64,000 nucleotides of DNA from Candidatus Caldarchaeales archaeon (GTDB lineage: Archaea; Thermoproteota; Nitrososphaeria_A; Caldarchaeales; Calditenuaceae), in contig JBCNVM010000001.1 in NCBI GenBank assembly GCA_039630085.1, forward strand, positions 96,001-160,000. Reading direction: 5' to 3'. Shown one piece after another: positions 14,870 through 38,185 of the stretch. A program made the position numbers and the translations under genes. Numbering within the stretch: position 1 is the stretch's first letter; every line of letters starts with the position of its first letter. Below the pieces are notes generated by a model. The model searched no databases. It was not told where the DNA came from and saw only the letters and a program-made list of their open reading frames with translations.

Positions 14870-14916
14870 GGGGCCGTGGTCTAGCGGCATGACGCCGCCC
14901 TCACACGGCGGAGGTC
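14870..14916 (+). pseudogene. Truncated intronless tRNA-Val(CAC) 5' fragment (positions 1-48; no T-loop or 3' acceptor strand)
   Basis: GGGGCCG TG GTCT AGCGGC ATGAC G CCGCC CTCACAC GGCGG AGGTC, then unrelated sequence. Confidence 0.85.
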
Positions 14917-14937
14917 GGAGATGCTAACACGGTTTCC

Positions 14938-14944
14938 TTTATTA
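14938..14944 (+). promoter_or_regulatory. TATA-like box of the complete tRNA-Val gene
   Basis: TTTATTA ending about 24 nt before the tRNA 5' end. Confidence 0.55.
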
Positions 14945-14967
14945 CAAGGCTAGGAGCTTTTACGGCA

Positions 14968-15058
14968 GGGGCCGTGGTCTAGGGGTATGACGCCGCTCTC
15001 ACATGACTGATGTCGGGGGAGGCAGCGGCAGCCGTGGGTTCGAGTCCCACCGGCCCCA
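14968..15058 (+). tRNA. tRNA-Val(CAC) with ~19-nt anticodon-loop intron
   Basis: Acceptor GGGGCCG/CGGCCCC-A; anticodon stem CCGCT/AGCGG; loop CT-CAC; T arm GTGGG-TTCGAGT-CCCAC; 19 extra nt (~15003-15022) with only a relaxed BHB. Confidence 0.8.
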
Positions 15059-15219
15059 TCGTGATTTTATACATCTTGCACTGGAAAATTATCTTGTATC
15101 GGTGCGATCAGAATAATATGAGTGACTGTGAAGAGGGAAAAAGAGGGGGGAGCGCTTCGTCGGATTCTCCTCAGCGTTTTCTGAAATCGAAGCCGAAAAG
15201 AGAATTTCGTCTTTCCGTC

Positions 15220-15510
15220 TCCGCCGACGTCTGCTGCCTCTTCTGCAACGCCGAGCAGGCGCTCTTCCTTATGACCGCGACAGACCTCGCTATTATCGGG
15301 AAGCCTGCCTGTGCAGCGCTGGCCAAGGCCCTGAACGAGAAGAGGGCTGTGATCAGCATGGGGTGCACCGCGAGCAGGACTAGGGCTGGCTACGGCCCTG
15401 ACGAGCTGGTCGCCTTCATACCAGCCGAGAAGCTAGAGCAGGTCGTGATGTCGCTCCGCGTGGTGGTCCCGATCGAGAGAAAGGTCCGCGAAATCGCCAA
15501 GTCGAAGTAA
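15220..15510 (+). pseudogene. C-terminal remnant of a DUF169-like protein
   Basis: DV....NAEQA..L...C........SMGC.ASR..AG..PDEL...IP pattern. The N-terminal half is missing and replaced by low-GC sequence. Confidence 0.55.
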
Positions 15511-15664
15511 TCTCCGCACACGCGGGACCGGCGAACAACTACCTGGCTCTCAATTTTTCTCCGAAGACTCGTCGTCCGTAATACTGTCCGGACTGAAGCT
15601 GGACGCGTGACGAGGCTCAACCGTTTTTACCTCGAGGGGCGCAATACGTCAGGGTGTCGCGCGC

Positions 15665-16291
15665 ATGGCCTACCAGATCAGGGTAGGCGTCACAACCTTC
15701 CAGGGCGACGTGGAGGAGCACCTGCTCGCGCTGAGGGAGGCGATGAGGAAGCTCAATGTGAGGGGTGAGGCGGTGACCGCGAAGCTCCCGGAGGAGATCG
15801 AGCAGCTCGACGCGGTCGTCGTCCCGGGAGGCGAGAGCACGGTGATGGGGAGGCTCGCACAGCGGTCGAGGTCGCTCGACGTCCTCAGGAGGAGGGTCCT
15901 CGAGGGCCTTCCGGTCCTCGGCACCTGCGCCGGCCTCATCTTCCTCGCGAGCAGGGTCTACGACAGGGTCGTCGGCGAGACGAGGCAACCGATACTCGGG
16001 GTCCTCGACGTCACGGTCGAGCGGAACTCCTACGGCAGGCAGAGGGACTCCTTCGAGGTGCAGATACCGGTGCCGGCCCTCGGGAGGGAGGGCTTCAGGG
16101 CGGTCTTCATCAGGGCTCCCTCGATCGTCGAGGTGGGGCCGGAGGTGGAGGTCCTAGCTAGGTACGCCGAGAGGCCGGTCGCGGTCAGGCAGGGCTCGAT
16201 CTACGGTACGACCTTCCACCCAGAGCTCTCCGGCGACACGGCTTTCCACGAGGTCCTCGTCGAGGAGGCCCTCAGGTTCAGCAGGCGGTGA
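15665..16291 (+). CDS. pdxT: PLP synthase glutaminase subunit
   Basis: QGDVEEH, PGGEST, GTCAGLI, RNSYGRQ.DSF, FIRAP, FHPEL. Confidence 0.95.
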   Translation: MAYQIRVGVTTFQGDVEEHLLALREAMRKLNVRGEAVTAKLPEEIEQLDAVVVPGGESTVMGRLAQRSRSLDVLRRRVLEGLPVLGTCAGLIFLASRVYDRVVGETRQPILGVLDVTVERNSYGRQRDSFEVQIPVPALGREGFRAVFIRAPSIVEVGPEVEVLARYAERPVAVRQGSIYGTTFHPELSGDTAFHEVLVEEALRFSRR

Positions 16292-16352
16292 CCCTCCGAG
16301 CTCGCCGACCCTTCACGGCAAGACTTTTATCAGTTCCTGAGAGGCCGAGGGC

Positions 16353-16802
16353 GTGGTCAACTACTGGCTGATGAGCGCGAAGGACCACAGGGGCCGCGAC
16401 GGCAAGCCGGTCCCCGCGAGGTCGGTCGTCGAGAGGAGGGTTGCGAACGGCGTCTGGTTCGTCTCCTACAGGAACCCCTACCTCAGGAAAGTCAGTCCCG
16501 GAGACGTCGGGATATTGCTCGCTCTCGGGAGGGAGAGGAAGGAGCTGCTCGGGGACTGCAGGGTGATCGGCGGGCCCTATCCGGTCGATGCGGCGCGGGC
16601 CGCGCTGATCGAGGGGCCTCCGTCATCGGCGCTCACCCATTACCTCAAGATCGAGGGGAAGCTCTGGCCACAGCCGAAGGACCTGATGGACTACCTGGGG
16701 AGGCTGAGCTTCGTCGGGGAGACCTCGAGGTGGTACGCGTACTTCCAAGGAGGTCTGAAGCCGCTGACCGAGGCCGACGTCGCTGTCCTGCTCTCCCGTT
16801 AG
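16353..16802 (+). CDS. EVE/PUA-like domain protein
   Basis: NYWLM start, W........LRKVSPGD, LSFV....W..YFQGG.KPLTEAD end. Confidence 0.62.
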   Translation: MVNYWLMSAKDHRGRDGKPVPARSVVERRVANGVWFVSYRNPYLRKVSPGDVGILLALGRERKELLGDCRVIGGPYPVDAARAALIEGPPSSALTHYLKIEGKLWPQPKDLMDYLGRLSFVGETSRWYAYFQGGLKPLTEADVAVLLSR

Positions 16803-17488
16803 GGCGCGACTAGGTAGGGCCTTACGTACTTCTCGAAGAGCCTCCTCCTCTCTGGTTGTGAGAGCTCCACGTAGCCCGTTGCCGGCGAGATGTAGGCTAC
16901 CTCGATGCTGTCCCCGCTCCCTATGTCCCTCCTTATCGCGACCGCGACCGCCTTGTAGGCCAGCTCGATCGCCTCGTCGAGGCCCATCCCGTCCCTGAAC
17001 TCGGACTCGAGGACGCCCAGCGCGATCGGGGAGCCAGAGCCGGTGCTGATGACCTTCTCCTCGGTTATTCCGCCGAACGGGTCGATGTTGAAGATGTGGG
17101 GCCCGGCCTCGTCGTAACCCCCGATCAGGAGCTGGGTCTGATACGGGAAGAACCTGTAGTAGAACATGTACGTCGAGAGGAGCGTCGCCGCTGCCCTCAC
17201 CTGCATCGGCCTGCCCTGAACGACCTGGTAGTGCCTGACGTTCGCCCTCAGCAGGTCCACTAGGGCCTGAGCGTCCGCGACCCTCCCGGCTATCGTCATC
17301 GCCATGTTGTCGGCCACCTTGTGGATCTTCTTCGCGCGCTTGTGGGCGATGAAGAAGCCGGCAGTGGCCCTCGTGTCGGTCGCGAAGACGACGAGGTCGT
17401 TCACCGTGAAGGCGAGCGTCGTCGTCCCGGTCTTCAGCGGCCGCGGTCCTGCGCCGGCGTCGCTGCCGAACATTCCGGTCGACTCCAC
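16799..17488 (-). CDS. psmB: Proteasome beta subunit
   Basis: Propeptide ending LKTG|TTT, DTRATAG, TGSGSP.ALGVLE, RDIGSG. Confidence 0.95.
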   Translation of the reverse strand: MESTGMFGSDAGAGPRPLKTGTTTLAFTVNDLVVFATDTRATAGFFIAHKRAKKIHKVADNMAMTIAGRVADAQALVDLLRANVRHYQVVQGRPMQVRAAATLLSTYMFYYRFFPYQTQLLIGGYDEAGPHIFNIDPFGGITEEKVISTGSGSPIALGVLESEFRDGMGLDEAIELAYKAVAVAIRRDIGSGDSIEVAYISPATGYVELSQPERRRLFEKYVRPYLVAP

Positions 17489-17587
17489 CCTCCTCCCACT
17501 AAAAAGTTGTTCGCGAGCGGACGTGACGCGGTCCGGAGCAGATCCGACGTCACCTCTTTATCCTTCTGCGAACCTGTCGGTCGATGA

Positions 17588-17685
17588 GGGCCCGTAGCTC
17601 AGCGGTAGAGCGCCCGGCTGTTAACCGGATGGCGGGCGCGGGGCTCGCCCGGGAGAGGTCGTGGGTTCGAGTCCCACCGGGCCCG
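17588..17685 (+). tRNA. tRNA-Asn(GTT) with ~26-nt intron at a non-canonical position (near 43/44)
   Basis: GGGCCCG/CGGGCCC-G; GCTC/GAGC; CCCGG-CTGTTAA-CCGG; T arm GTGGG-TTCGAGT-CCCAC; hairpin insert GGCGGGC/GCTCGCC at ~17630-17655. Confidence 0.88.
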
Positions 17686-17738
17686 CTCTCTTCTGCGGCT
17701 CTCGGTCCGCGAAGAGGGGTTCGATAGGCGCATCGCTT

Positions 17739-18398
17739 TCAGTCGCTCCCGACCGGCGTCGTGCCCGACGCGAGCATCTTCCTCGCCAAGTAGACAGCGG
17801 ACCCGAGGGCACCGGACTCAGCCGCGTGGTAGCTCCTCGCTCCGGCGATCAGCATGACGTCGCCGTCGTTGGGGCATAGCTCGTCCAGCAGCTTCCTCGC
17901 GAACCCGGGGTGCTCCTCAGAGATATCGCTGACCTCAGGCATCAGCACCCTCCCCATGACGTAGCTCAGGACCATAGCGGCCTCCGCCCCGTGCCTGATC
18001 GCCTCGTCTCGCTCGTCGAGCCCCCTCCCCACGTGTCCCGAGGCCCTCCTGACGATGACCCCGACGCTGTGCTCGTAACTCCAGACCTCGTCGAGCCTGA
18101 TGGGCTTCGGCTCGGTCATCAACTCAGACAGCCCCTTGAGGAACTCCCTGCCGCGGTCGCTCAGGATGCACCCCGACCTGATCACGTTCACGAGTCCACG
18201 CTGGGCCAGCCTCCTGATGATCGTCCTCGCTGTACCCTCTCCGACGCCGAGCCTCGCGCCCAGAGCCGACCTGCTGATCATGTTCTCCCTGCTGAGCGCG
18301 AAGAGGGCCCTCAGGTAGATCACGGGACCGAGGGGGACGCCCTGACCCAGCCTTCCGGCCCCCTCGAGGAGAAGGTCCCGAGGCCCCTCCGCCCTCAA
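17739..18398 (-). CDS. HTH protein, DUF4443-like
   Basis: SRSALGARLGVGEGTARTII HTH; GLDERDEAIRHGA motif. Confidence 0.65.
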   Translation of the reverse strand: MRAEGPRDLLLEGAGRLGQGVPLGPVIYLRALFALSRENMISRSALGARLGVGEGTARTIIRRLAQRGLVNVIRSGCILSDRGREFLKGLSELMTEPKPIRLDEVWSYEHSVGVIVRRASGHVGRGLDERDEAIRHGAEAAMVLSYVMGRVLMPEVSDISEEHPGFARKLLDELCPNDGDVMLIAGARSYHAAESGALGSAVYLARKMLASGTTPVGSD

Positions 18399-18467
18399 GC
18401 CCTCGGAACTTATTCCCGCCGTCTGTAGTTAAGTTTTTAACGCGTGTCCCCCTCTTCCCGGTCGATC

Positions 18468-18986
18468 TTAGAGCAGGGCGACCTGCGGCTCGATCGGCGT
18501 CCTCAAGCTGTAGATCGCCGGGCACCGGTCCTTCGCCTCCTCCACCAGCCGCTCCATCACCTCCCTCGGCGCGTCGCCGGAGAGCTTGACCTCGAACCTC
18601 ACCGACCTGACGATCGGCCGGTCATGGACGCCCAGCGGCTTCGAGAAGTCGACCTCGCACGACCCCTTGACCTCCGCGCCCGTGAGCCTCACTCCCCTCT
18701 CCGCCGCGATCCCGACGAGCGTCGCCATGAAGCACGACGCCATCCCGACCAGGCAGTAGTGCATCGGGCCGGGCCTGCTCCCGCTCCCTCCGAGGAAGCT
18801 CGGCGAGTCGACCTCGATCCTGAACTCTCCCGACTCGGCCCTGCACCTCGCGACGAACTGGACTTCTCCCGGCTCTGTGACCCAGTGTCCGCTCACCTCG
18901 ATCGTCCTGACGGCCTTCGTCGGGTCCGACTTCAGCAGCTCAATGGTCCCAGAGACCTTCTCGATGTCGACGTTGTTGAACCTCAC
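18468..18986 (-). CDS. OsmC/Ohr family protein
   Basis: DSPSFLGG...GP.....GMASC and RCP; two conserved Cys. Confidence 0.85.
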   Translation of the reverse strand: MRFNNVDIEKVSGTIELLKSDPTKAVRTIEVSGHWVTEPGEVQFVARCRAESGEFRIEVDSPSFLGGSGSRPGPMHYCLVGMASCFMATLVGIAAERGVRLTGAEVKGSCEVDFSKPLGVHDRPIVRSVRFEVKLSGDAPREVMERLVEEAKDRCPAIYSLRTPIEPQVALL

Positions 18987-19070
18987 GCCCGTGCGGCCAT
19001 CGGCGCGGCTATAAACGTGCGACCTTCACTCGTGAACTTAATACGATGCCCGTCGGGTCGGGACCCGGAA

Positions 19071-20606
19071 TTGGGCTCGGACGCGGGGAAGCTCGCCCTC
19101 CACCCGATCGAGGCGAGGGTGCTCTGGGCGCTCTCCTCGGGAGAGAGGCTCAGCTTCGGCGAGGTCTCGAGGAGGACGGGCCTCGACCAGGGAGCGGTCG
19201 CGAAGTCGGTCGAGAGGCTCGCGTCGAAGGGGCTGGTCAGCGTCAGCGAGGTCACCGTGAGGACCGTCGCAGAGCTGAGCGCGGAGGGCCTCGAGTACAG
19301 CCTGAGGGGCCTTCCGGAGAGGAGGCTGGTTGACTTCCTGAGGTTGAGGGGAGGTAGGGCGAGCCTGGCGGAGCTCCGGTCGATCGAGGGGATGGACGAG
19401 GAGGGGGTGAGGATCGGGGTCCTCTGGGCGAAGAAGCAAGGGTGGGTCGAGGTCGCGAAGGAGGGCGGCGAGACCTACGTCGAGCTGGTCACTTACCCCG
19501 ACTACAGGACGGACGAAGAGATGGCGCTGGATGCGCTGAGGTCGGGCCCCAGGAGCTTGGAGGAGCTCGGGGCGCTCGCGGGCACCGCGGCGAGGCTCTC
19601 GAGGAGGGCCGGGCTCGTGAGGCTGAGGGAGGAGAGGGAGCACGTCGTCGAGGCGACCCGCGAGGGGCTGGAGGTCGCGAAGTCCGTTGAGCTCCCAGTC
19701 TACGCGGTGAGCCAGCTCACGCCCGAGCTGATCAAGACCGGGAGGTGGAGGTCGGTCCACCTGATCAGGTACGACGTCCTCGCGCCGGTCAAGCCGGTCT
19801 TCGCGGCCAAGGAGCACCCGCTCACCTCGCTGATCAGGAGGGTGAAGGAGGCCTTCGTCGAGCTGGGCTTCGAGGAGGTCCAGGGCCCTCTCGTCGAGCT
19901 GGCGTTCTGGAACTTCGACGCCCTCTTTCAGCCCCAGGACCACCCGGCGAGGGAGATGCACGACACCTTCTACCTCGAGTGGCCCTCGACAGGCAGGCTC
20001 CCCGAGGGGCTGGCGGGAAGGGTGAAGGAGGCCCACGAGACCGGAGGCGACACCGGGTCGAGGGGGTGGAGGTACAGGTGGAGCGCTGAGGAGGCCTCGA
20101 GGCTCGTCCTGAGGACCCACACCACCGCGACCACGATCAGGTACCTCGCGGAGCGCAGGGAGCCCCCCGTCAAGGTCTTCTCGGTCGACAGGATCTTCAG
20201 GAACGAGAGGGTCAACTGGAAGAGGCTCGCGGAGTTCCACCAGATCGAGGGCATCCTGATGGACCGGGGAGTCGGGATGAGGCACCTGATGGGGACGATC
20301 AGGGAGTTCTACGCGAGGCTCGGGCTGAAGGAGGTCAGGTTCAGGCCGAGCTACTTCCCATACACGGAGCCCTCGGCCGAGGTCGACGTCTACTTCGAGG
20401 ACCTCGGGAGGTGGGTCGAGCTGGGAGGGATGGGCGTCTTCAGGCCCGAGGTGACGAGGCCGCTCGGCGTCGAGCACCCGGTCCTCGCCTGGGGCCTAGG
20501 ACTCGAGAGGCTTGCCCTCATCCTCCACGGCCTCGAGGACATCAGGACCTTCTACCTGAACGACCTCTCTTGGATCAGGTCCGCAAACCCCTTCGTGGTC
20601 AGGTGA
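19071..20606 (+). CDS. pheS: Phenylalanine-tRNA ligase alpha subunit
   Basis: FWNFDALFQPQDHPAREMHDTF, LRTHTT, EFHQIEG, YFPYTEPS, AWGLGLERL; start set at TTG 19071. Confidence 0.96.
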   Translation: MGSDAGKLALHPIEARVLWALSSGERLSFGEVSRRTGLDQGAVAKSVERLASKGLVSVSEVTVRTVAELSAEGLEYSLRGLPERRLVDFLRLRGGRASLAELRSIEGMDEEGVRIGVLWAKKQGWVEVAKEGGETYVELVTYPDYRTDEEMALDALRSGPRSLEELGALAGTAARLSRRAGLVRLREEREHVVEATREGLEVAKSVELPVYAVSQLTPELIKTGRWRSVHLIRYDVLAPVKPVFAAKEHPLTSLIRRVKEAFVELGFEEVQGPLVELAFWNFDALFQPQDHPAREMHDTFYLEWPSTGRLPEGLAGRVKEAHETGGDTGSRGWRYRWSAEEASRLVLRTHTTATTIRYLAERREPPVKVFSVDRIFRNERVNWKRLAEFHQIEGILMDRGVGMRHLMGTIREFYARLGLKEVRFRPSYFPYTEPSAEVDVYFEDLGRWVELGGMGVFRPEVTRPLGVEHPVLAWGLGLERLALILHGLEDIRTFYLNDLSWIRSANPFVVR

Positions 20607-20612
20607 CACTGT

Positions 20613-22265: not shown

Positions 22266-22336
22266 GCCGCTTTCTCAGACAAGTGGTAAAAGATCTTCTA
22301 CAGAGGCGGTTTAGGTAAAAACGATGTGCGAGCATC

Positions 22337-29238: not shown

Positions 29239-29242
29239 CAGG

Positions 29243-30123: not shown

Positions 30124-30366
30124 TTAGCCTCCGCTCCGCTCGTCTCCGGAGCGACCGCGCTTCGGAACGGGGGCGGTGAGGGCGACGTACCCGAGGAGCG
30201 CGACCAGAAGCATGAGGCCGACCGAGATGGCGTAGACGCTCCAGGTTATCAGGACCTCCTTCTCCACGAGCCTCACCAGCCCCGTCATCACGCCGGTGTA
30301 GACCGCGACCCCGAGGATCCCTCCGACCATCATCAGCGCCCCTACCATCCTGACGAAGAACGCCAA
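30124..30366 (-). CDS. Small two-TM membrane protein
   Basis: Two hydrophobic helices, host-like codons. Confidence 0.6.
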   Translation of the reverse strand: MAFFVRMVGALMMVGGILGVAVYTGVMTGLVRLVEKEVLITWSVYAISVGLMLLVALLGYVALTAPVPKRGRSGDERSGG

Positions 30367-30470
30367 GCCCCCTCGACCCGGACCGCTCCCTTGGAGAGAT
30401 AGAGGTTTCCCGAAGGGGGACCGCGGGGGAGCTGATCGGTTTTTATCCTGAGGGCCCGTGAGGCGGAGGG

Positions 30471-30986: not shown

Positions 30987-31034
30987 GCGCATCGCGTATG
31001 GGTTTATGAGAATCCGGCCGGACGGTCCAGCGGG

Positions 31035-31571: not shown

Positions 31572-31633
31572 CCTCCTGAAGCTTCGGGCCCCGCGGGACA
31601 AGAATTATCACTCGGCTCGGGCCTCTCGGCTGC

Positions 31634-32050
31634 GTGGAGCTCAGGTGGTTCGTCGCGGCCCTCCTCGCCCTCCTCTTCTGGGGGACTTGGGGCCTCCTCG
31701 GGAGGGTGCTCTCCCAGCAGCTCGGATGGCGGGAGATGACGGCCCTCGCGGCCCTCGGACAGCTCCTCGCGAGCACGAGCTTCATCCTGATCGCGCGGCC
31801 CTCGATCTTCCAATCGCTGCCCCTCGCGGCGCTGGGACTGGTCACGGGGGCTCTCGGCTTCCTCGGCGCCGCCATGTTCTACGTCGCCCTCGAGGCGAAC
31901 CCCTCTTCGATCGTCGTAGTGGCCACCTCGCTCTACCCCATGGTCACGGTCGTGCTGGCCCTCGTCCTGCTGGGGGAGGTCCCCAATCCGCGCCAACTCC
32001 TGGCCCTCGCATTCGCGGTGACCGCGCTGGTCCTCTTCGCCACCTCCTGA
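31634..32050 (+). CDS. EamA/DMT single-domain membrane protein
   Basis: Five TM segments, FYVAL, SLYP.VTV.LA..LLGE. Confidence 0.8.
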   Translation: MELRWFVAALLALLFWGTWGLLGRVLSQQLGWREMTALAALGQLLASTSFILIARPSIFQSLPLAALGLVTGALGFLGAAMFYVALEANPSSIVVVATSLYPMVTVVLALVLLGEVPNPRQLLALAFAVTALVLFATS

Positions 32051-32116
32051 CCGGATTCTCCCCCGGAGGCTAACCCTTTATGACCGACCTGACTGGACGT
32101 GTGGGCTGACTCCCGC

Positions 32117-34000
32117 ATGTCGGAGGAACAGGGGACGTACAAGCGGGAAGTGGGGTGGTTCGGTTCCTTCTCGATGGGGTACGGCGACGTCGGGGCCGAC
32201 ATCTTCATCGCGCTCGGCGTCACGATGCTCTACGCCGGAGGGGCCGCTCCGCTGGCCTTCCTGATCGGGTCGCTGGCCTACGTCGCGATCGCCCTCTCCT
32301 ATGGAGAGCTCGCACCCGCGTACCCGTACGCCGGAGGAGTCCACGTCTACGCGCTGAGGGCCTGGAACACCCTGCTGAGCTTCGTCGCGGGCTGGGCCCT
32401 GATGCTGGACTACCTGCTCTGCATCTCCCTCTTCGCGACCGCCTCTGCAGGCTACCTCCACTTCATCTTCCCGGAGCTCGAGGCCCTCTCGCTCGACCTC
32501 GGGCCCGTGGAGTTCGGCTCCCTGGGCCTGACCTCGGCGCTGCTCGTCGCCTTCCTCTTGGGCCTCAACTACGTCGGGATCAAGTACTCCGCGGGCCTGA
32601 TCTCCTCCATAGTCGCCTTCAGCATAGCGGTCCAAGCCGTCATCTTCCTCGTGGGTTACCTCACCTCCTTCGATTCCGAGCGCTTCGCCGAGCAGGTCAC
32701 GAGACTCGGGAGCGGAGACTTCCTGCCCGAAGTCGAGTACGTGCCCTTCTTCGACGCCCACACCAACAACTTCCTCTACGGCGTGACGATCGCGATGGCC
32801 TCGTTCATCGGGGTCGAGTCGATCGCCCAGGCCGCGGAGGAGACGAGGGCCCCTCATAGGTGGATCCCGAGGGCCGCGAAGCTCGCGGCGCTCCTCGTGC
32901 CCCTCTCCGTTCTCCTGATGAGCGTCCTCGCGATAGGCGTCACGGACGTGCAGACCATCGTCGACTCGATCGAGAACCCGGTGGCCGCCCTCGTGAGCAG
33001 GTTCAGGGTCTTAGGTGAGGAGCTCGCACTGGTCGTCGCGGTCACCGCGATGATCATGTCGCTGGCCTCCTCCAACACGGGCGTGATAGGTGTCTCCAGG
33101 TTGACCGCCTCGATGGGGAAGCTCTCCCTCCTCCCGCACTGGCTCTACAGGCTCCACCCGAGGTTCGGGACGCCGACGAGGACCATCCTGCTCTTCGGAG
33201 GGATCGGGCTGGCCCTCACGCTCCCCGGCGACATACCGCTCCTCGCGAGCCTCTACAACTTCGGCGCCATGATCGGTTACATCATGCTGCTCCTCTCGGT
33301 GATAGCGCTCAGGTACAAGGAGCGGAGCGTCTTCAGGCCCTGGCAGCTGAGGCCCTCCGTCGTCATCAGGTGGAAGGGGAGGGAGCTCGAGGTCCCCGTG
33401 CTGGTTGCGCTCGGGCTGGCCGCGACCACCGCCATCTTCGCCCTCTACCTCCTCCTCCACCCGCTGGGGAGGTTGCTCGGGGCCGTCTGGATGGCGGTCG
33501 GGGTCCTGGGCTACGCCCTCTACCGCAGGAGGGTGCTGGGACTCGCGGTCGTCGACACCAGCGAGCGGGAGATGGTGATCCCTGCCGGATACAGGATGAG
33601 CCTCACGGTCTTCGTCAGGCCCTTCGAGAACCCGGAGACGGTCGTCAGGACGATAACCTCCTACACCGACACGAGGTTCGAGATCAAGCTCGTCAGCGTC
33701 ATCGAGAGGGAGATGGCGGGCGAGGCCGAGCCGGACACGGAGGCCGTGGAGCGCCAGCTCGAGCGGGTCGCCTCCAAGCTGAGGGCGAAGGGTTACTCGG
33801 CGACCTACGAGGTCCAGGTCGGGGACTTCGAGGAGGCGGCGGTCAGGGAGCTGACCTCGGGGACCGCGGACTTCGTCGTCTACTTGGTCAGGGGCTTCGA
33901 GAAGGCCTCGGTCCTGAAGGCCTCAGCCCACAGCGAGAGGATCCATTTGGTGCTCTCCAGATTCCCCGGGAGGGTCGTCCTCCTCAAGAAGACCGTCTGA
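32117..34000 (+). CDS. APC-family amino acid permease with C-terminal USP-like domain
   Basis: YGEL...P.AGG, FIGVESIAQAAEE, HPRFGTP; soluble C-terminal ~130 aa. Confidence 0.85.
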   Translation: MSEEQGTYKREVGWFGSFSMGYGDVGADIFIALGVTMLYAGGAAPLAFLIGSLAYVAIALSYGELAPAYPYAGGVHVYALRAWNTLLSFVAGWALMLDYLLCISLFATASAGYLHFIFPELEALSLDLGPVEFGSLGLTSALLVAFLLGLNYVGIKYSAGLISSIVAFSIAVQAVIFLVGYLTSFDSERFAEQVTRLGSGDFLPEVEYVPFFDAHTNNFLYGVTIAMASFIGVESIAQAAEETRAPHRWIPRAAKLAALLVPLSVLLMSVLAIGVTDVQTIVDSIENPVAALVSRFRVLGEELALVVAVTAMIMSLASSNTGVIGVSRLTASMGKLSLLPHWLYRLHPRFGTPTRTILLFGGIGLALTLPGDIPLLASLYNFGAMIGYIMLLLSVIALRYKERSVFRPWQLRPSVVIRWKGRELEVPVLVALGLAATTAIFALYLLLHPLGRLLGAVWMAVGVLGYALYRRRVLGLAVVDTSEREMVIPAGYRMSLTVFVRPFENPETVVRTITSYTDTRFEIKLVSVIEREMAGEAEPDTEAVERQLERVASKLRAKGYSATYEVQVGDFEEAAVRELTSGTADFVVYLVRGFEKASVLKASAHSERIHLVLSRFPGRVVLLKKTV

Positions 34001-34053
34001 GCCCGAGGGGTCATCCTTAAAGCCAGATCGCACATCCGAGGTGGGACTCGGAA

Positions 34054-34323
34054 TTGGCCGGTGTGAAGGCGCTGGTCCACCTCTTCGTCGAGCCCGGCCG
34101 CCTCGAGGCCGTCGGGGAGGCCCTCTCGAGGTTCGATGAGGTGACGGACGTCTACGAGGTGACCGGGGAGTACGACATCATCGCGATCGTGAACGCCACC
34201 GACGTGACTTCGTTCAGGAGGTTCATCTCGGAGAAATTGCTGACCATTCCCGGGATAAGGAGCGCGGTCTCCTCGATAGTGCTGCACGTCTACAAGAAGG
34301 GCGGGAAGGTCACCTACGAGTGA
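34054..34323 (+). CDS. Stand-alone Lrp/AsnC ligand-binding (RAM) domain
   Basis: VYEVTGEYDIIA, IPGIRS; no HTH. Confidence 0.85.
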   Translation: MAGVKALVHLFVEPGRLEAVGEALSRFDEVTDVYEVTGEYDIIAIVNATDVTSFRRFISEKLLTIPGIRSAVSSIVLHVYKKGGKVTYE

Positions 34324-34464
34324 GGTCTCCGCACTTTCAGCCACCTCCCCCTCTTGGCTGATAGCTCGGCGTTCCCTCCGGCGCGGGCGTGAACCCGGAG
34401 TCTACGCGCTCAGAGTCCTTTGGCCTGCGGACCGGGTTCGGTGGGCGTACGAGGTGCCTCTGCC

Positions 34465-36378
34465 ATGGACCTTGAGGTGCGTAGCGGCGTCGGGTGGTCC
34501 AAGGTCACCCCCAAGGTCGTCAGCCTCTCTCATGAAGTCCGGGGCAACCAGCTCGAGTCCCTCGAGTTCACGCTGCTCGACGAGGACGTCTCGGTGGGGC
34601 AACAGGTGCGGTGCCTGCAGGGCGGGGTTCCGAGGTTCGAGGGCGTCGTGGTCAACGTCCGCAAGTCGGTGAGCGGCGACGCTGGTCGGCGGTCGGTCTG
34701 TCAGGCCCTCTCCGAGCTCGTCCTTTGGGACCGACACGTCGTCTTCAGGGAATACGCCGCCGGGACTCGTGCGGGCGCGATCATCAAGGACTTGGCGAGG
34801 CTGGAGAGCGGCGTCGATATCACCAACGTCGACGAGTCAGACACACCGGCCCTTACGGCTCCTTGGGCTGTTCAGAACGAGTCCGCGCTCAAGGTCATGA
34901 CAGCCGTAGCCCGCGGCACCAACTACTATCTCAGGATGCTGCCCGGCCGGAGGTTGTACTTCAAACCAAAGGCTCCTAGCGCGCCCGTGGCCATCATCGA
35001 CAGAAGCATCGTGACCGCGGCCGAGTACAGCGAGGATCGGTGGCGCCTGAGGAACAGAGTGATCGTCGCGGGCGCCGGTGGGCAGGTCCTAGCGGACGTG
35101 AGCGAGGGTGCCGGCGATCTCCCGGTCGTCGTGCACGACCCGTTCCTCACCTCCACCAGTGAGGCTCAGCGCCGTGCCATTGTCAGGTTGGCTCTCAACA
35201 GGGAATACGGCCGGCAGCTCAGGGTCACCTTACGCCGCGATTTCGTCGAGCGGACCCAGATAGACCTCTTCAGCACGGTGAAAGTCGAACTGCCGGAGCT
35301 TGGGCTCTCGGGCGTCGACATGCACGTCGTGGGCATTAGCTACGCGCCTCCGGATCCGTACGTCGTGTTAGAGGTAGGTGGGAGACTCGAGCTTCTCGAG
35401 GACTACCTGAGCGAGGCCGTCGGCGGGGATTTAGCAGCGCGATTCGGTCAAACGGTTTCTGTCGCAGAAGAACTGGCGACAATGAGGTCCACTCTCTACC
35501 ACACCAAGAGGGTCGTCGCGGCCGTCGGCTATAGCTACGTGACCTACGTCAACAAGAGGCCGATCACCGTCCACAGGGGCGCGAACGTCAAGCTCAATGA
35601 GTCAACAGGTGAGGTTGAGCTCGCCTCGGGCAGGACCAACGGCTGGTTCGAGGTCGATTTCTTCCCGCCGTCGGAGCGCTTCGCCCGCTGGGGCGCCATC
35701 AGCTGGGTCTCCAGACCACGAGACGGTAGCATCACGGTCGAGGCGCGGGACGCGTCGGGCTCCGTGCTCCGGAGCATGAGCGACCCCAAGATCGCCGGCT
35801 GGTCACTCGCGAAGAGATTACCGCTCCGCAGGTGGCCCGGGCGAATTCACGGCATGACTAGGTATCCGGCCTACGCCAAGTGGGGCGCTGGCTTGGGCGC
35901 GCGGGCCATGGACGCGCGGATGGGCTACCTGATCGGCTCGTGCGTCCGGCTTGAGCCCACGAGTTACGGAACCACCGGCGAAATATTCTATCCGAGCGCG
36001 AAAAATCTCAACATCGACCTCGCATGGATCAGACGTGTCAATATCTATCTCCATTCCTTTGAAGATAACGTAACGTGTGCCATCCGCCTTCATGAAAGCG
36101 CGAACGCCTATCGAGAGGCTATACTGCCGATACCGCAGGGAGGCGTTTGGAATCTCTACACGATCAACGCCAGCACGCTCCGGACCGTGGGCAATCCGAC
36201 AAAAGTGAATTGGATCAGCATATCATGCGCTTATCCTCTATTGATTGACAGCGACTACGTTTTCCACGAGCTCTGGCATGAGAAGTTGACCGTTCGATTT
36301 AACCTCTCGAGACCGAGCGCGACCGCGGCGAGTCCACAAATATCGCACGTGCTCATTACATACGTTGATAGGTCGTGA
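34465..36378 (+). CDS. Putative viral tail hub/tail-tip protein with beta-rich C-terminal domains
   Basis: F.G.V..V, AG.IIKDL, L.V...VA..TNY......LYF.P, RNRVIV.G, A.RRA...L pattern typical of tail hub proteins; aromatic carbohydrate-binding-like C-terminus. Confidence 0.55.
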   Translation: MDLEVRSGVGWSKVTPKVVSLSHEVRGNQLESLEFTLLDEDVSVGQQVRCLQGGVPRFEGVVVNVRKSVSGDAGRRSVCQALSELVLWDRHVVFREYAAGTRAGAIIKDLARLESGVDITNVDESDTPALTAPWAVQNESALKVMTAVARGTNYYLRMLPGRRLYFKPKAPSAPVAIIDRSIVTAAEYSEDRWRLRNRVIVAGAGGQVLADVSEGAGDLPVVVHDPFLTSTSEAQRRAIVRLALNREYGRQLRVTLRRDFVERTQIDLFSTVKVELPELGLSGVDMHVVGISYAPPDPYVVLEVGGRLELLEDYLSEAVGGDLAARFGQTVSVAEELATMRSTLYHTKRVVAAVGYSYVTYVNKRPITVHRGANVKLNESTGEVELASGRTNGWFEVDFFPPSERFARWGAISWVSRPRDGSITVEARDASGSVLRSMSDPKIAGWSLAKRLPLRRWPGRIHGMTRYPAYAKWGAGLGARAMDARMGYLIGSCVRLEPTSYGTTGEIFYPSAKNLNIDLAWIRRVNIYLHSFEDNVTCAIRLHESANAYREAILPIPQGGVWNLYTINASTLRTVGNPTKVNWISISCAYPLLIDSDYVFHELWHEKLTVRFNLSRPSATAASPQISHVLITYVDRS

Positions 36379-36381
36379 GGC

Positions 36382-37449
36382 ATGACAGAGTATCTGATAC
36401 TGAGCAAGGATAGGGCTTTACCGCTGATGTGGGAATTCCAGAGAGTAGTCACGGCGCCCCCACAACAGAGCACATTATCCTTCAATCTGCCACAGAGCGT
36501 TCAAACCCGTTCACCTTCCTCTACTCCCAATTACTTCGAGATAATGGGACTAGGCCAGCATGCATTCGTGTCGTTTACCACACCACAACAACCCACTCCG
36601 CAAAACGTCAAAAGTATAACTCAACCTCGGTTAACAAACGCTAATTTCACCATCCCAGGCGTAGCGGGGTCGGTGCAAGTCGTCCTGGAGCTTTGGACCG
36701 TCGGCAGTAACGGTCTTCCTGCCACGAAGCTACGTGACCTCGCGAGCGGCCCCCCTAATGTAACGTTCTCGGCCGATTTTTCATCGGCGCCCGTGTTGGA
36801 TTGGAACACCACGTATGCCGTCGTGATGCGCCCCACCTCGTTTTCGGCCGGTGCGTGGTTCAGAGTCACCTATGGAGACGCCGGTTCAGCGCCTCTATCC
36901 CCGGGTAACTTCGGCAGGTCGCTGAACGCCGGTTCGTCGTGGACGATTTTCTCCAATCAAGCCAGCGGAAGCGTGGCGATTCAATTCCGTTACGAATTAG
37001 GACCGTGGCGTTTCTTCCTGAACCGTCCAAACGAGGCGGCGAACTATTACATCAGCTTCACGCAAAGCGGACCATCAGGCATCACTTACCTCGGCGACCT
37101 AGTGAACGGTTCTCCCTATACAAACCCGACGTCCATCAGCGGAGAGTTCGAATACACGGTGCTCGCCTCTACCACCTCTGCGATCAGCAATAGTTCAATT
37201 ACGGCTACGCTCCAGTGCGAGCTGAGATATGAGAAGAACCCGATGACGATCGACATGTTCAACGTCGCAGAGGCGTATCTTTCGCGCATCGACTTCCTAG
37301 ACGGCGGGTCAATCCAATTGAACGACAGCCCCGATCAGGTCTTCTCGGGTAACGCGGGCACGTCGCTGACCTTCAACCCGATGGTCCTCGTCTGGGAGGC
37401 GAGGGTCCTCAGCGGAAGGGTGAGGCTCACGATGATGGTGTTCGAGTGA
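36382..37449 (+). CDS. Putative viral receptor-binding/fibre protein
   Basis: S/T/N/P-rich and beta-rich, low GC; ELWTV.SNGLP..L and L.WNTTYAVV motifs. Confidence 0.5.
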   Translation: MTEYLILSKDRALPLMWEFQRVVTAPPQQSTLSFNLPQSVQTRSPSSTPNYFEIMGLGQHAFVSFTTPQQPTPQNVKSITQPRLTNANFTIPGVAGSVQVVLELWTVGSNGLPATKLRDLASGPPNVTFSADFSSAPVLDWNTTYAVVMRPTSFSAGAWFRVTYGDAGSAPLSPGNFGRSLNAGSSWTIFSNQASGSVAIQFRYELGPWRFFLNRPNEAANYYISFTQSGPSGITYLGDLVNGSPYTNPTSISGEFEYTVLASTTSAISNSSITATLQCELRYEKNPMTIDMFNVAEAYLSRIDFLDGGSIQLNDSPDQVFSGNAGTSLTFNPMVLVWEARVLSGRVRLTMMVFE

Positions 37450-37868
37450 TGCCGGAGATGCGCGAGATCGACACAGAGTCCGGCCTCCCCGTCGACGTCG
37501 CGAGGAAGCTGAAGGAGCTCGAGGCGAGGGCTCGGGTTGTCAAGCTCGACGCAGAAGGGCGGGTCGTGATCGGCGACGCCCATGACTTCCCGATCGAGGT
37601 GGTCACGGCCGAGCTCACGGTAGTCTCCAAGCGGGAGGTGAAGGAGAACGTGAGGCCCGTGGATGAGAAGGCCCTCGAGGTCCAGCTGCCGGAGCCGAAG
37701 CGGTATGAGATCGGCGGGAAGACCGTGATCGGGTTCCTTGAAGACGAGCTCCCCGAGGTCGTGAGGACCGGAGGGGGCTACAGTCTGACCGCGCTGATGG
37801 CGATCCTAATCCACAAGGTGAACAGGCTCGAAAGGATCGTGCGTCAAATGGAACGCGGGTCTAAGTAA
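37446..37868 (+). CDS. Short protein with peptidase S74-like tail-fibre intramolecular chaperone domain
   Basis: SKREVKENVRPV...P.RY....IGFL.DELPEVV...L.AIL...V..L, then coiled coil. Confidence 0.68.
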   Translation: MMPEMREIDTESGLPVDVARKLKELEARARVVKLDAEGRVVIGDAHDFPIEVVTAELTVVSKREVKENVRPVDEKALEVQLPEPKRYEIGGKTVIGFLEDELPEVVRTGGGYSLTALMAILIHKVNRLERIVRQMERGSK

Positions 37869-37946
37869 TTCGCTGCCCATGTCTCACCGTTCATATAGTG
37901 GAACTGCGAACGGAGTTTCGAGACCGACCGAGGTTAGGGGGACGCC

Positions 37947-37980
37947 GCCGGGGTGCCCTAGCCCGGTAGGGGGGTGGCCT
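37947..37980 (+). pseudogene. tRNA-Ser 5' fragment (positions 1-33), ending at U33
   Basis: GCCGGGG TG CCCT AGCCCGGTA GGGG G GTGGC CT, canonical U8/A14/A21, then AT-rich sequence. Confidence 0.85.
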
Positions 37981-38051
37981 CTTTAGAACTAAAGATACTA
38001 AAATCATCAAATATCCCTAATTGAGCAATTTAAATAGTGGGAATGTGAATG

Positions 38052-38058
38052 ATAATAA
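38052..38058 (+). promoter_or_regulatory. TATA-like box of the complete tRNA-Ser gene
   Basis: ATAATAA ending about 26 nt before the tRNA 5' end. Confidence 0.5.
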
Positions 38059-38083
38059 GCGAGGCTACATGGGTTCGAGTGAT

Positions 38084-38185
38084 GCCGGGGAGCTCCAGCC
38101 AGGTCGGAGGGTGGCCTGCTAAAAGTCGTTGCAGTGAGCCACTGCCCCCTTTGGGGGCTCGAGGGTTCAAATCCCTCCCCCGGCG
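38084..38185 (+). tRNA. tRNA-Ser(GCT) with 15-nt canonical 37/38 intron (38122-38136)
   Basis: GCCGGGG/CCCCGGC-G; GTGGC/GCCAC; BHB with CTGC:GCAG and bulges TAA/TGA; long variable arm GCCCCC-TTT-GGGGGC; GAGGG-TTCAAAT-CCCTC. Confidence 0.9.

Follow-up and report, generated by a model that had tools for sequence, protein, structure and literature searches.

We lean towards reading two tRNA loci of a hot-spring archaeon, known from a MAG of 66 contigs (here G000, 90% complete), as scars of xenologous tRNA gene replacement that came from endonuclease-linked low-GC inserts. Both lie in the window, that is, the whole 64,000-nucleotide stretch of DNA that was analysed. Alignments with congeners show that the resident tRNA-Val(CAC) and tRNA-Ser(GCU) genes were broken after nt 48 and nt 34, respectively, with the remainder of each gene lost; directly behind each break stands a foreign cassette, made of a promoter-bearing spacer and a complete tRNA gene with the same anticodon (Table 1).

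Table 1. Features of the Val and Ser loci (window positions) and disrupted tRNA loci on other contigs of G000
Locus	Feature	Position	Strand	Evidence or layout
Val	trm56, host left flank	14291..14860	+	Pfam Trm56, 6.7e-45
Val	5′ fragment (nt 1-48) of resident intron-less tRNA-Val(CAC)	14870..14917	+	48/48 vs G004, G006
Val	Foreign spacer, 50 bp, GC 0.44	14918..14967	+	Sequence, GC
Val	Complete foreign tRNA-Val(CAC) with intron (Val′)	14968..15058	+	ARAGORN; Rfam 55 bits, full model
Val	Foreign low-GC cassette tail, 165 bp, GC 0.44	15059..15223	+	
Val	Truncated DUF169 gene, C-terminal part only	15224..15510	+	Pfam DUF169, positions 122-207 of 209
Val	pdxT (SNO glutamine amidotransferase), host right flank	15665..16291	+	Pfam SNO, 4.4e-47
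Ser	140-aa ORF, host left flank	37446..37868	+	No Pfam match
Ser	5′ fragment (nt 1-34) of resident tRNA-Ser(GCU)	37947..37980	+	34/34 vs G003, G004
Ser	Foreign spacer, 103 bp, GC 0.33, TATA-like boxes	37981..38083	+	Sequence, GC
Ser	Complete foreign tRNA-Ser(GCU), 15-nt intron (about 38122-38136) (Ser″)	38084..38185	+	MFE fold
Ser	Host 3′ flank of tRNA-Ser locus	38186..38267	+	Aligns with resident-gene flank in G003
Ser	ogg (8-oxoguanine DNA glycosylase), host right flank	38268..39020	-	Pfam Ogg-HhH, 5.7e-52
Gly(UCC)		C15		5′ fragment, 185-bp spacer with near-copy of resident promoter, then new tRNA
Gly(CCC)		C43, with C10 and C6		
Lys(CUU)		C2; C14		C2: promoter, nt 1-9, insert; C14: starts with nt 6-105 and host flank
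Trp	5′ fragment	C1		
Gln	5′ fragment	C50		At contig end; downstream unreadable

Resident Fragments and Complete Copies at the Val and Ser Loci

The cut-off canonical 5′ tRNA fragments described in the earlier note are borne out by comparison of the orthologous loci. Congeners keep a resident, intron-less tRNA-Val(CAC) gene in synteny with trm56 (G003, G004, and G006) and a resident tRNA-Ser(GCU) gene beside ogg (G003 and G004), and the identity of the fragments to these genes, complete over their length and at syntenic sites, is not attributable to chance. The reference for the Val fragment is the 72-nt intron-less gene found after trm56 in G004 and G006; the complete gene in the same place in G003 differs from these in the D loop. 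The fragment (48 nt, GC 0.75), whose break falls on the first T-stem base, scores 26.1 bits against the Rfam tRNA model, below the cut-off. The Ser fragment, for which the 87-nt gene adjoining ogg serves as the reference, is cut in the anticodon loop after C32 and U33. The resident promoter is retained upstream of it, with CCGTTCATATAGTGG common to G003 and G004, and the region of the 140-aa ORF shows 83-84% DNA identity to the sequence upstream of the resident tRNA-Ser in G003 and G006 and is recognisable in G004.

Both fragments are followed by low-GC spacers with TATA-like boxes, much as noted earlier, although the Val spacer measures 50 bp and not 51. The Val box, TTTATTA at 14938-14944, lies ~27 nt ahead of the tRNA start, and the spacer together with the 5′ half of the tRNA matches, at 80% identity, the corresponding part of the G000 tRNA-Val(GAC) gene, promoter region and 5′ half (contig C3, 851-935). 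The Ser spacer is without a counterpart in G003 and G004.

The complete copies lie in the same orientation as the fragments and, as had been claimed, are diverged, intron-bearing, and altered by compensated stem changes. Val′ is identical to the resident gene at 61/72 positions (counted by hand from the alignment), with changes in the D loop, one compensated anticodon-stem pair, the variable loop, and the T stem (GTGGG/CCCAC versus GCCGG/CCGGC). Its intron of ~19 nt follows the anticodon at about 15004-15022, where the Rfam alignment places a 21-nt insert. For Ser″ the identity is 70/87, with the D stem, the variable arm, and one compensated T-stem pair changed. Ser″ was missed by ARAGORN and by the Rfam gathering run, and its best clan match is the tRNA-Sec model (29.4 bits over the full model, below the gathering score). 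Its MFE fold is a cloverleaf of -55.9 kcal/mol with a 4-bp helix and a 3-nt bulge at the 3′ end of the intron. Divergence from the resident type runs along the whole length of both copies, beyond the region covered by the fragments; since the 3′ parts differ too, the copies are not chimeras of a fragment-type 5′ half and a host 3′ half. The search for a donor found none: Val′ matches best, at 83%, the intron-bearing tRNA-Val(CAC) of G017, a copy that an endonuclease gene adjoins; Ser″ has no match above ~70% over its length, and exact-pattern scans returned nothing.

The earlier note also expected lower-GC DNA downstream, which holds at Val, where the flank is foreign and DUF169 is truncated; at Ser the flank is host DNA homologous to that of G003. 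Within the Val tail, 15129-15187 is what remains of the 3′-flanking DNA of a LAGLIDADG endonuclease gene: these 59 nt match (52/59 identical, E 4e-16) the interval on C64 that separates tRNA-Ala(GGC) from the stop codon of the endonuclease ORF. Homology to G003 picks up again at 15224, which places the right junction inside DUF169, a gene of full length in G003 and G006. At Ser the right junction falls at or inside the tRNA 3′ end, and no endonuclease gene or remnant was found at this locus. Contigs of run X1 represent another allele at the Val locus, with identical flanks.

Pattern and BLAST searches of the 66 contigs revealed no other Val(CAC) or Ser(GCU) gene, so the cassette copies are the sole ones seen in G000, and no 3′ half of either resident gene.

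Further Disrupted tRNA Loci in the Same Genome

At least five more loci of G000 (Gly-UCC, Gly-CCC, Lys-CUU, Ala-GGC, and Trp) carry resident fragments beside low-GC inserts, and in four of these five the insert supplies its own tRNA. Additional 5′ fragments, for which the earlier note suggested a scan, are among six further cases and include Gly(UCC), Lys(CUU), Trp, and Gln. The Lys (C2/C14) and Gly-UCC (C15/C24) loci are less decayed: the insert splits the resident gene and begins with its own tRNA as the first feature. The resident pieces of Lys overlap by 4 nt around the insert, and the likely other end of the Gly(UCC) insert, on C24, holds an endonuclease gene, a 3′ fragment, and host flank. 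For Ala(GGC), G003 holds the resident gene and two host genes; G000 has a ~23-nt 3′-end fragment and a low-GC island of 3.5 kb that contains an endonuclease gene and a new tRNA-Ala. Together with the congeners, the Lys and Gly-UCC loci support the claim that resident genes were broken, with wholly different same-anticodon copies and a promoter-like spacer behind them.

In all six replacements the new copy has the resident anticodon, and the break points vary in position (nt 5-9, 33-38, and 48-51). That the replacement bears an intron proved right for four of the six new copies; Ala(GGC) and Gly(UCC) go the other way, with an intron in the G003 resident type and none in the new copy.

A LAGLIDADG Endonuclease Family Linked to the Inserts

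In the intact inserts of G000, the tRNA faces a convergent gene for an HTH-LAGLIDADG endonuclease. Six of the seven LAGLIDADG_3 matches in the genome belong to one family; three of the endonuclease genes are convergent with a tRNA, and one more, on C24, reads in the same direction as the tRNA-Gly 3′ fragment that it runs into. Intact two-motif ORFs are found on C64, C2, C5, and C24, and the window retains just the flank remnant after Val′. The two LAGLIDADG motifs and their acidic residues are invariant in nine sequences, and the nearest solved structure is I-DmoI (E 1e-5). On C5, the insert boundary relative to G003 is exactly the tRNA 3′ end.

The family is present in 28 of the 41 genomes of the order. 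Among 80 genome-contig loci from several archaeal orders, 48 show a convergent tRNA at a distance of 0-375 bp beyond the match (45-130 bp in most), and 7 more are without downstream sequence; the relatives' loci have such a tRNA within ~800 bp of the match in 11 of 20 cases. From these locus counts and the C5 boundary, the endonuclease gene keeps a fixed place beside a conserved target gene, the tRNA. None of the 48 wider loci has a 5′ fragment within 400 bp upstream of the convergent tRNA, and 12 testable loci of 14 in relatives gave only weak fragment candidates (L071, score 11; L060, score 12), so tRNA breakage is not the usual outcome of this family. A tandem tRNA copy was observed at one of the relatives' endonuclease loci (L059). 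No copy of the endonuclease was confirmed in viral contigs, and Rfam revealed no group I intron at the 20 relatives' loci.

The endonuclease tree, from which 12 of the 47 labelled loci were left out because of stops or short length, shows 21 changes of tRNA label (minimum possible 12, shuffled mean 24.4) and thus appears to track host taxa, not tRNA identity. Within a single genome, Pro, Val, and Ser genes all have near-identical endonuclease copies beside them. Indirect signs that a carrier allele might resist cleavage are mixed: at Val, Ser, and Lys the surroundings of the break point include variant bases or an intron, but resident and new tRNA-Ala do not differ in the T arm. The idea that each endonuclease copy has a specific target that the variant tRNA escapes is unsupported, given a tree that follows host taxa and near-identical copies at different tRNAs.

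Proposed Mechanism

We infer the following mechanism of replacement. The two cassettes would be end pieces left over from low-GC mobile inserts such as those still intact elsewhere in G000, which start with their own tRNA and carry, convergent with it, the gene for the I-DmoI-like HTH-LAGLIDADG endonuclease. Predicted cleavage would leave a double-strand break in the resident tRNA gene, to be repaired with the foreign DNA. One junction could arise by homology at the tRNA 3′ end, as may be the case at Ser, and the other by illegitimate joining upstream of the donor promoter, so that the resident 5′ piece would stay. The rest of the insert would have been deleted later, at Val along with the 5′ part of DUF169. 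The tRNA cassette would have been kept through this decay, since the sole copy of an isoacceptor had to stay. Such tRNA "addiction", by which the insert would become indispensable, is proposed in the earlier note and would be weaker for Val(CAC), because tRNA-Val(UAC) could read the codon of Val(CAC) by wobble.

Alternative Explanations

A tyrosine-recombinase element could instead have recombined with the 5′ part of the tRNA gene, as proposed for tRNA-Thr(GGU) of Caldiarchaeum subterraneum, or, while carrying a full tRNA gene, with the 3′ end of the resident, with the body of the element deleted later; we consider this unlikely. The breaks in the anticodon loop and at the T stem do fall at frequent integrase crossover sites, as Williams reportedly described in 2002, and the inserts on C2 and C1 carry plasmid-like genes (a PriL-like domain, 3.7e-15, a PLD nuclease, and an RHH protein). 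The same layout is also published, for the tRNA-Thr(GGU) locus of the related archaeon C. subterraneum (PMC3293823), and 5′-distal integration is described as known but rare, with the tRNA-Ser of C. subterraneum among the examples in the available text (PMC6563490). Nevertheless, no tyrosine integrase came to light: the G000 assembly contains no PF00589 or PF16795 match, at a completeness of 90% that could place an integrase, or a 3′ half, in the missing part of the genome, and the inserts are tied to the LAGLIDADG family. A query with the 288-aa ORF that immediately precedes tRNA-Thr(CGU) in G024, taken as ORF b, the putative recombinase of the C. subterraneum insert, also found no homologue in G000, although this single-sequence search could miss distant relatives. 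Moreover, a single crossover within the tRNA cannot yield copies that differ from the resident in their 3′ parts, just 50 and 103 bp separate fragment from copy, and the break points vary. It is distinctly unlikely that redundancy came first, the cassette landing beside an intact resident gene, for instance at its 3′ end, and that gene then decayed by deletions with nothing cutting it. The usual endonuclease locus would agree with this, being an intact tRNA with the insert beginning at its 3′ end, as would the loss of the 5′ part of DUF169, which shows that plain deletions happen at Val. The fragments, however, are still 100% identical to the relatives' genes, without point decay, the 4-nt overlap of the Lys pieces indicates insertion into the gene, and the positions of the breaks are not random but concentrated at nt 33-38 and 48-51.

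Replacement by endonuclease-linked inserts must also be weighed against an error of assembly, in which a MAG contig fuses strains or tRNA loci at a repeated tRNA sequence. In run X1, contigs whose flanks are identical to the window diverge from it at 14904/14905, continuing as a resident tRNA-Val with an intron; another joins it at 15224, coming out of a DUF169 gene of full length; and among the contigs listed none spans the whole Val locus. We nonetheless hold such an artefact to be very improbable: positions 14888-14999 occur on one contig of run X2 (124 nt) and 14905-15058 on one of run X1 (175 nt), so that other assemblies also connect the end of the fragment with the spacer and the new tRNA, a comparison that covers the Val locus in two runs of the same study, which are not independent samples. 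The same layout also recurs at G000 loci of different sequence. It is scarcely credible, finally, that the fragments function as halves of split tRNAs, or that each pair stems from a local tandem duplication followed by divergence, even if a 5′ half under its own promoter looks like part of a split tRNA gene and fragment and copy stand in tandem. The absence of 3′ halves from the assembly indicates that the loci are not split tRNAs, and complete same-anticodon genes are present; copy and fragment differ by 15-21%, the fragment being identical to the congeners' genes, and the spacers are AT-rich, unlike host DNA.

Comparison with Known Systems

The split-tRNA alternative named in the earlier note was checked, and no separate 3′-half gene with a complementary leader was found for Val(CAC) or Ser(GCU) in the 66 contigs. 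Tyrosine recombinase elements of the SSV and pNOB8 types resemble the G000 inserts in their tRNA target, the fragments left behind, and the low GC of the insert. In those elements the tRNA is rebuilt from host and element parts, and a direct repeat, nearly identical and usually of the 3′ part, stays behind; in G000 there is no integrase found and no repeat pair, and the new gene is complete and differs by 15-20%. Neither a reconstituted tRNA with a direct repeat (att), the copies differing on both sides of the break, nor an element body between repeats was seen at Val or Ser, where the intervening DNA is limited to the short spacers.

With I-DmoI and the other LAGLIDADG enzymes of archaeal rRNA introns, the G000-type proteins share a monomeric two-motif core. 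They differ in being free-standing, with one to several N-terminal helix-turn-helix repeats, and in being encoded outside the tRNA on the opposite strand, whereas I-DmoI is encoded inside an rRNA intron. In collaborative homing, a free-standing endonuclease moves together with an intron. SegB of T4 is a free-standing endonuclease in a phage tRNA gene cluster (PMC2330249), and the likeness to both lies in an endonuclease gene beside tRNA genes, which would carry neighbouring tRNAs into the recipient, and in an intron or variant near the cut that could protect the carrier. According to the available part of that paper, SegB is a phage GIY-YIG enzyme and transfer takes place between co-infecting phages with homologous flanks (PMC2330249); the G000 enzyme, in contrast, is an HTH-LAGLIDADG protein in archaeal chromosomes, and one junction would be illegitimate.

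The case nearest in architecture is the tRNA-Thr(GGU) locus of C. subterraneum, from the same group (Aigarchaeota/Caldarchaeales), which consists of a 5′ fragment, a compositionally foreign insert, and an intron-bearing complete tRNA (Sugahara et al. 2012, PMC3293823). As at Val and Ser, a 5′ fragment identical to the ancestral gene stands upstream of a complete tRNA with an extra intron in the same orientation. The authors propose that introns were gained via a mobile element and that the element is shielded against further invasion, so the 5′-fragment architecture with its opposite polarity, the intron gain, and the protection against re-invasion, put forward in the earlier note, are already in print for C. 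subterraneum, as far as the available text of that paper goes (PMC3293823). There, the new gene is a chimera, with nt 1-27 and the intron from the element and the 3′ part from the host, and a 1.87-kb insert with the putative recombinase ORF b lies between fragment and gene (PMC3293823). At neither G000 locus was a host-derived 3′ part seen; the entire tRNA is foreign, much less DNA separates it from the fragment, and the inserts are tied to a LAGLIDADG endonuclease that is absent from the available account of C. subterraneum (PMC3293823). Relative to that published case, whole-gene replacement and the link to the endonuclease look new.

Replaced tRNA genes at the Val and Ser loci

The layout described in the earlier note, a 5′ tRNA fragment followed by a spacer and a complete tRNA, was confirmed at both loci by the sequence, ARAGORN, Rfam, the cloverleaf fold and the congeners. 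The complete tRNA-Val(CAC) and tRNA-Ser(GCU) are called Val′ and Ser″ below, and the gene kept by the congeners is called the resident. Ser″ was missed by both ARAGORN and the Rfam gathering run; this is relevant to annotation, as such genes escape two standard finders and tRNA fragments may pass for genes. Val′ is followed by 165 bp with a GC content of 0.44, and the window lies at about 0.62-0.69 with a dip to 0.53 at 36001-37000. Introns are present in many tRNA genes of this genome (G000; assembly of 1.41 Mb in 66 contigs, 89.9% complete). In G000 coordinates the window is C1:96001-160000.

Features of the replaced or broken tRNA genes and of the endonuclease upstream block
Feature	Position	Evidence or remarks
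trm56	left of Val locus	Pfam 6.7e-45
tRNA-Val 5′ part including anticodon CAC	window 14870-14917	sequence
Val spacer, 50 bp, GC 0.44, TTTATTA about 27 nt ahead of next gene	between window 14917 and 14968	sequence
Complete tRNA-Val(CAC)	window 14968-15058	ARAGORN; Rfam 55 bits, 21-nt insert behind anticodon
tRNA-Ser 5′ part, ending after first two anticodon-loop bases	window 37947-37980	sequence
Ser spacer, 103 bp, GC 0.33	between window 37980 and 38084	sequence
Class II tRNA, anticodon GCU, 15-nt insert	window 38084-38185	cloverleaf fold; tRNA clan 29.4 bits, full model
Gly(UCC)	C15	5′ fragment with own promoter, 185-bp AT-rich spacer, then different complete tRNA-Gly(UCC)
Gly, probable other end	C24	endonuclease gene, tRNA-Gly 3′ fragment, flank found 1.1 kb past the gene in G003
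Gly(CCC)	C43 start	nt 2-34, 35-bp spacer, different intron-bearing tRNA-Gly(CCC)
Gly(CCC), 3′ side	C10	AT-rich DNA, 24-nt 3′ fragment, flank also behind full gene on C6
Lys(CUU), left	C2	resident promoter and nt 1-9, then insert
Lys(CUU), right	C14 start	nt 6-105 and host flank
Ala(GGC)	G000	~23-nt 3′-end remnant of resident gene; 3.5-kb island, GC 0.35-0.53
Trp 5′ fragment	C1	then PriL-like and membrane-protein module, same as on C2
Gln 5′ fragment, nt 1-27	C50	at extreme contig end, nothing readable beyond
GC-rich block	C2:46200-46305; C64:23130-23215; C5:about 8100-8200	upstream of endonuclease starts

Both loci were searched against 40 relatives. The congeners G004 and G006 have an intron-less tRNA-Val(CAC) of 72 nt behind trm56, with nt 1-48 identical to the window fragment, and the congener G003 has a complete intron-less tRNA-Val(CAC) at the same place, with a D-loop that differs from the G004/G006 type. 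An 87-nt intron-less tRNA-Ser(GCU) precedes ogg in G003 and G004; the two copies are mutually identical and their nt 1-34 are identical to the window fragment. The fragments are therefore leftovers of the resident genes, from which the complete copies are distinct. Val′ differs from the resident at 11 of 72 positions (hand count), including the variable loop and both T-stem strands, and Ser″ at 17 of 87, in the D stem, the variable arm and one T-stem pair, with the stem differences of both being compensated. Because the 3′ parts differ too, one crossover inside the tRNA is excluded as the origin of either copy. Simple 5′-att integration with the host 3′ half kept was ruled out as well, since the T stem, variable region and intron differ from the resident. 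The earlier note had also considered split tRNAs, with separate 3′ halves elsewhere; none of the contigs of the 89.9% complete G000 assembly has a 3′ half of the resident Val(CAC) or Ser(GCU), which argues against this alternative. Neither was a second Val(CAC) or Ser(GCU) gene seen in that assembly. For Ser(GCU) the “addiction” to the substitute proposed in the note is a fair reading; for Val(CAC) the case is weaker.

The right flank of the Ser locus aligns to the flank of the G003 resident gene from the first post-tRNA base, which places the junction at or within the identical last tRNA bases. At the Val locus, homology to G003, G004 and G006 does not return before 15224, a position within a DUF169 gene. 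G003 and G006 have this gene at full length, whereas G000 retains only profile positions 122-207 of 209. The Val event thus removed tRNA nt 49-72, the intergenic DNA and the 5′ part of DUF169. In G003, the closest relative, 20 kb (C1:21285-41655) separate tRNA-Val(CAC) from DUF169-pdxT. This stretch was considered as an intact element and rejected, being host DNA that lies inverted and elsewhere in G000 (C1:244448-259340), where it ends at tRNA-Arg(CCG); it also includes a 4.4-kb stretch 78% like C3:1601-6033. The difference is a genome rearrangement with tRNA genes at both ends.

No donor was found for the cassettes: the best match in a family-wide DNA search was 83%, BLAST against all fetched loci gave none, the Val′ intron and the Ser″ variable arm, searched as exact patterns, each had 0 matches in metagenome contigs, and the exact Ser″ intron pattern had 0 in viral contigs.

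The Val locus is present in two sequencing runs (X1 and X2) of one hot-spring study. The MAG itself probably derives from these runs, which are therefore not independent evidence. Near the tRNA-like repeats the contigs are short, and no single contig among those of X1 and X2 crosses the whole locus. The replaced arrangement is represented by a 124-nt X2 contig over 14888-14999 and a 175-nt X1 contig over 14905-15058. A 23.9-kb X1 contig equals the window up to 14904 and then runs into an intron-bearing resident tRNA-Val, and a 10.2-kb X1 contig equals the window from 15224 on, preceded by full-length DUF169. Two readings fit: the replacement is polymorphic in the population, and would then be very recent, or different strains are mixed in the MAG at this locus. 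An X2 loose end at 15211 has a continuation resembling, by eye, the C-terminal coding end of the endonuclease gene on contig C64.

Several other features of the window were noted. Two long ORFs of 652 and 355 aa without Pfam match (34420-37449, + strand) lie directly upstream of a conserved 140-aa ORF and the Ser locus, the shorter one in the lowest-GC kilobase of the window (0.53), and may be part of an old provirus or element. The tRNA at 17588-17685 (+ strand; anticodon GTT by ARAGORN, Rfam 57.9 bits) carries a 27-nt insert in the variable region. Its counterpart in G004 and G006 (L003:3417-3504) has the insert elsewhere, in the 5′ strand of the anticodon stem, and this insert (CCACATGGGG...) is similar to the odd intron of the cassette tRNA-Lys at C2:44092-44180.

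Other replaced or broken tRNA genes in G000

BLAST of 46 tRNA sequences against the G000 genome, with inspection of the matches, led to the further loci listed in the table. The C15 spacer contains a near-copy of the promoter of the Gly(UCC) fragment; at the equivalent place G003 has an intron-bearing resident Gly(UCC), and homology stops at the break. C24 looks like the other end of the C15 insert, the two contigs being unjoined in the assembly; no links were found from end overlaps among the small G000 contigs. The Lys(CUU) pieces on C2 and C14 overlap by 4 nt. Besides a spacer, the C2 insert contains plasmid-like genes, an endonuclease ORF of 699 aa and a variant tRNA-Lys(CUU), which has a compensated change in the acceptor stem and an intron in an odd place. 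For Ala(GGC), G003 has an intron-bearing resident gene and two host genes; the island in G000 carries an endonuclease and a new, inverted, intron-less tRNA-Ala(GGC).

In all six replacements (6/6) the new copy keeps the resident's anticodon. Four of the six new copies have an intron, and in two cases, Ala and Gly-UCC, the congener's resident has an intron and the new copy does not. One genome thus shows stages, from splitting inserts with a substitute, through inserts missing parts, to the window loci, where only the substitute tRNA is left. This evidence fits the note's proposal that the resident tRNA is broken by an incoming unit which supplies a substitute with its own promoter, and the less decayed loci of G000 back that proposal.

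A module encoding a 153-aa primase large-subunit-like domain protein (PF04104, 3.7e-15) and a small membrane protein occurs twice: at C1:1-713, where it follows the tRNA-Trp 5′ fragment, and at C2:46551-47465, where it follows the tRNA-Lys cassette. A PLD-like nuclease and an RHH protein come next on C2, and the arrangement resembles part of an integrated, plasmid-like element. Further weak or partial matches to tRNA on small contigs or contig ends (C21:17-80, C56:81593-81658, C10:620-692) and a T-arm-like fragment (C28:194-217) may be more fragments or oddly interrupted genes.

An endonuclease family beside tRNA genes

The integrase frame of the earlier note does not fit these loci, as no tyrosine recombinase of either Pfam family was matched in the 89.9% complete assembly. 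G000 has seven LAGLIDADG_3 matches. Six of them form a single family whose members combine a LAGLIDADG core of two motifs with helix-turn-helix repeats at the N terminus. Across nine aligned sequences the acidic residues do not vary, and the closest PDB match is I-DmoI (E 1e-5); an NCBIfam search gave only weak intein-host and transposase-HTH matches. The G000 genes lie in low-GC islands of foreign composition, and the endonucleases form their own branch. On C64, C2 and C5 the gene 3′ end faces the tRNA 3′ end, and the insert boundary on C5, relative to G003, is exactly the tRNA 3′ end. Behind Val′, window 15129-15187 is identical at 52 of 59 positions to the C64 DNA that separates tRNA-Ala from the endonuclease stop; an endonuclease gene was therefore once part of the Val cassette, or of a unit from which the cassette stems. 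No endonuclease remnant was seen at the Ser locus.

Of the 41 genomes of the order, 28 have the family; a single genome can have as many as 34 matches, many with stops. In the genome contigs collection, 242 stretches were confirmed. Among the best 80 loci, 48 have an opposite-strand tRNA 0-375 bp (mostly 45-130 bp) past the match; the rest have another nearby tRNA arrangement (7), no ARAGORN tRNA (18) or no downstream sequence (7). By chance, with about 46 tRNA genes in 1.4 Mb, we estimate well under one such adjacency in 80. An Rfam scan of 20 relatives' loci gave 11 convergent tRNAs, 3 other arrangements and 6 without tRNA. Hosts include Caldarchaeales, Nitrososphaerales, Geothermarchaeota, Thermococcus and Archaeoglobaceae; in viral contigs there was one pattern match and none was confirmed.

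In the relative G017, two identical intron-bearing tRNA-Val(CAC) genes stand in tandem, 227 bp apart, beside an endonuclease gene (L028/L059, C3:6394-6714; spacer partly masked by N). Three endonuclease genes share a conserved GC-rich block, about 100 nt long and with two hairpin-like repeats, immediately 5′ of the start codon; promoter or leader, small RNA and element end are candidate roles. Group I intron identity was rejected for this block, with no Rfam intron match in 20 loci; for archaeal group I introns, the available portion of PMC6125680 lists rRNA hosts only.

An endonuclease tree was built from 35 sequences; of 47 labelled loci, 12 that had stops or were too short were left out, and 3 G000 copies were added. 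The grouping follows host taxa, and the tRNA labels need 21 changes, with 12 the least possible and a shuffled mean of 24.4. One endonuclease clade per tRNA is not supported, the sole label-pure clade being tRNA-Met, and one MAG has near-identical copies beside Pro, Val and Ser genes. An enzyme that acted on tRNA genes would therefore have to read a feature common to them. Escape of a variant copy from a copy-specific enzyme is not supported either, and the T arms are equal at Ala. The break points form three groups (nt 5-9, 33-38 and 48-51), and a search for a purine-rich flank motif with 2 mismatches was too unspecific in the GC-rich G000 genome. In the wider set, no 5′ fragment (0/48) lies within 400 bp upstream of the convergent tRNAs, and among the relatives, where 12 of 14 prepared loci reached far enough upstream, there were only two weak fragment candidates, so the usual outcome is an intact tRNA.

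Proposed mechanism and relation to known systems

The intact tRNAs usual elsewhere and the fragments of G000 may plausibly be reconciled. Within a lineage, homing would be clean, with both flanks homologous. For the foreign islands of G000, homology would have come from the tRNA alone, the other junction would be illegitimate and a piece of the resident would be left. We tentatively suggest, with low confidence, that a widespread archaeal family of free-standing HTH-LAGLIDADG endonucleases might home to the 3′ side of tRNA genes and, when crossing lineages, drag along the donor tRNA and its promoter, driving whole-gene xenologous replacement, the scatter of fragments and rapid gain and loss of tRNA introns. 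If true, the turnover of archaeal tRNA introns, and the origin of split tRNAs, would have an engine at the DNA level. How archaeal tRNA introns are gained, and tRNA genes broken and exchanged, is an old open question, with one tRNA-Thr locus as the sole population-level case study so far. Essential tRNA genes are replaceable wholesale by foreign ones, such replacements change intron presence in both directions, and the endonuclease family beside tRNA genes in many archaeal orders is a testable candidate agent.

In the open-access literature, searches on archaeal tRNA gene replacement and on homing or LAGLIDADG endonucleases next to tRNA genes of archaea found no publication on the family. The available text of Krupovic et al. 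2019 (PMC6563490) describes 5′-distal recombination as rare, names one case, a tRNA-Ser of Caldiarchaeum subterraneum, and does not mention homing endonucleases. In the same organism, according to the accessible portion of Sugahara et al. 2012 (PMC3293823), a tRNA-Thr with two introns has a tRNA-Thr(GGU) 5′ fragment 1.8 kb upstream, the insert encodes a putative recombinase, and the authors' model comprises integration, intron gain and protection from re-invasion. The last two ideas, also raised in the earlier note, are thus not new. The coordinates printed there match tRNA-Thr(CGU) in the genome that we used (G024), and the 288-aa ORF directly upstream was taken as ORF b; it has no Pfam family and no match in G000. 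The only two intact endonuclease-family copies of G024 are at places other than the tRNA-Thr locus.

What appears to be new here is whole-gene xenologous replacement at multiple loci and its tie to a widespread tRNA-flanking LAGLIDADG family. As far as its description in PMC3293823 goes, the new tRNA of C. subterraneum is a chimera with the host 3′ part, whereas the complete copies of G000 differ in their 3′ parts. The nearest functional analogue is T4 SegB in the phage tRNA cluster (PMC2330249).
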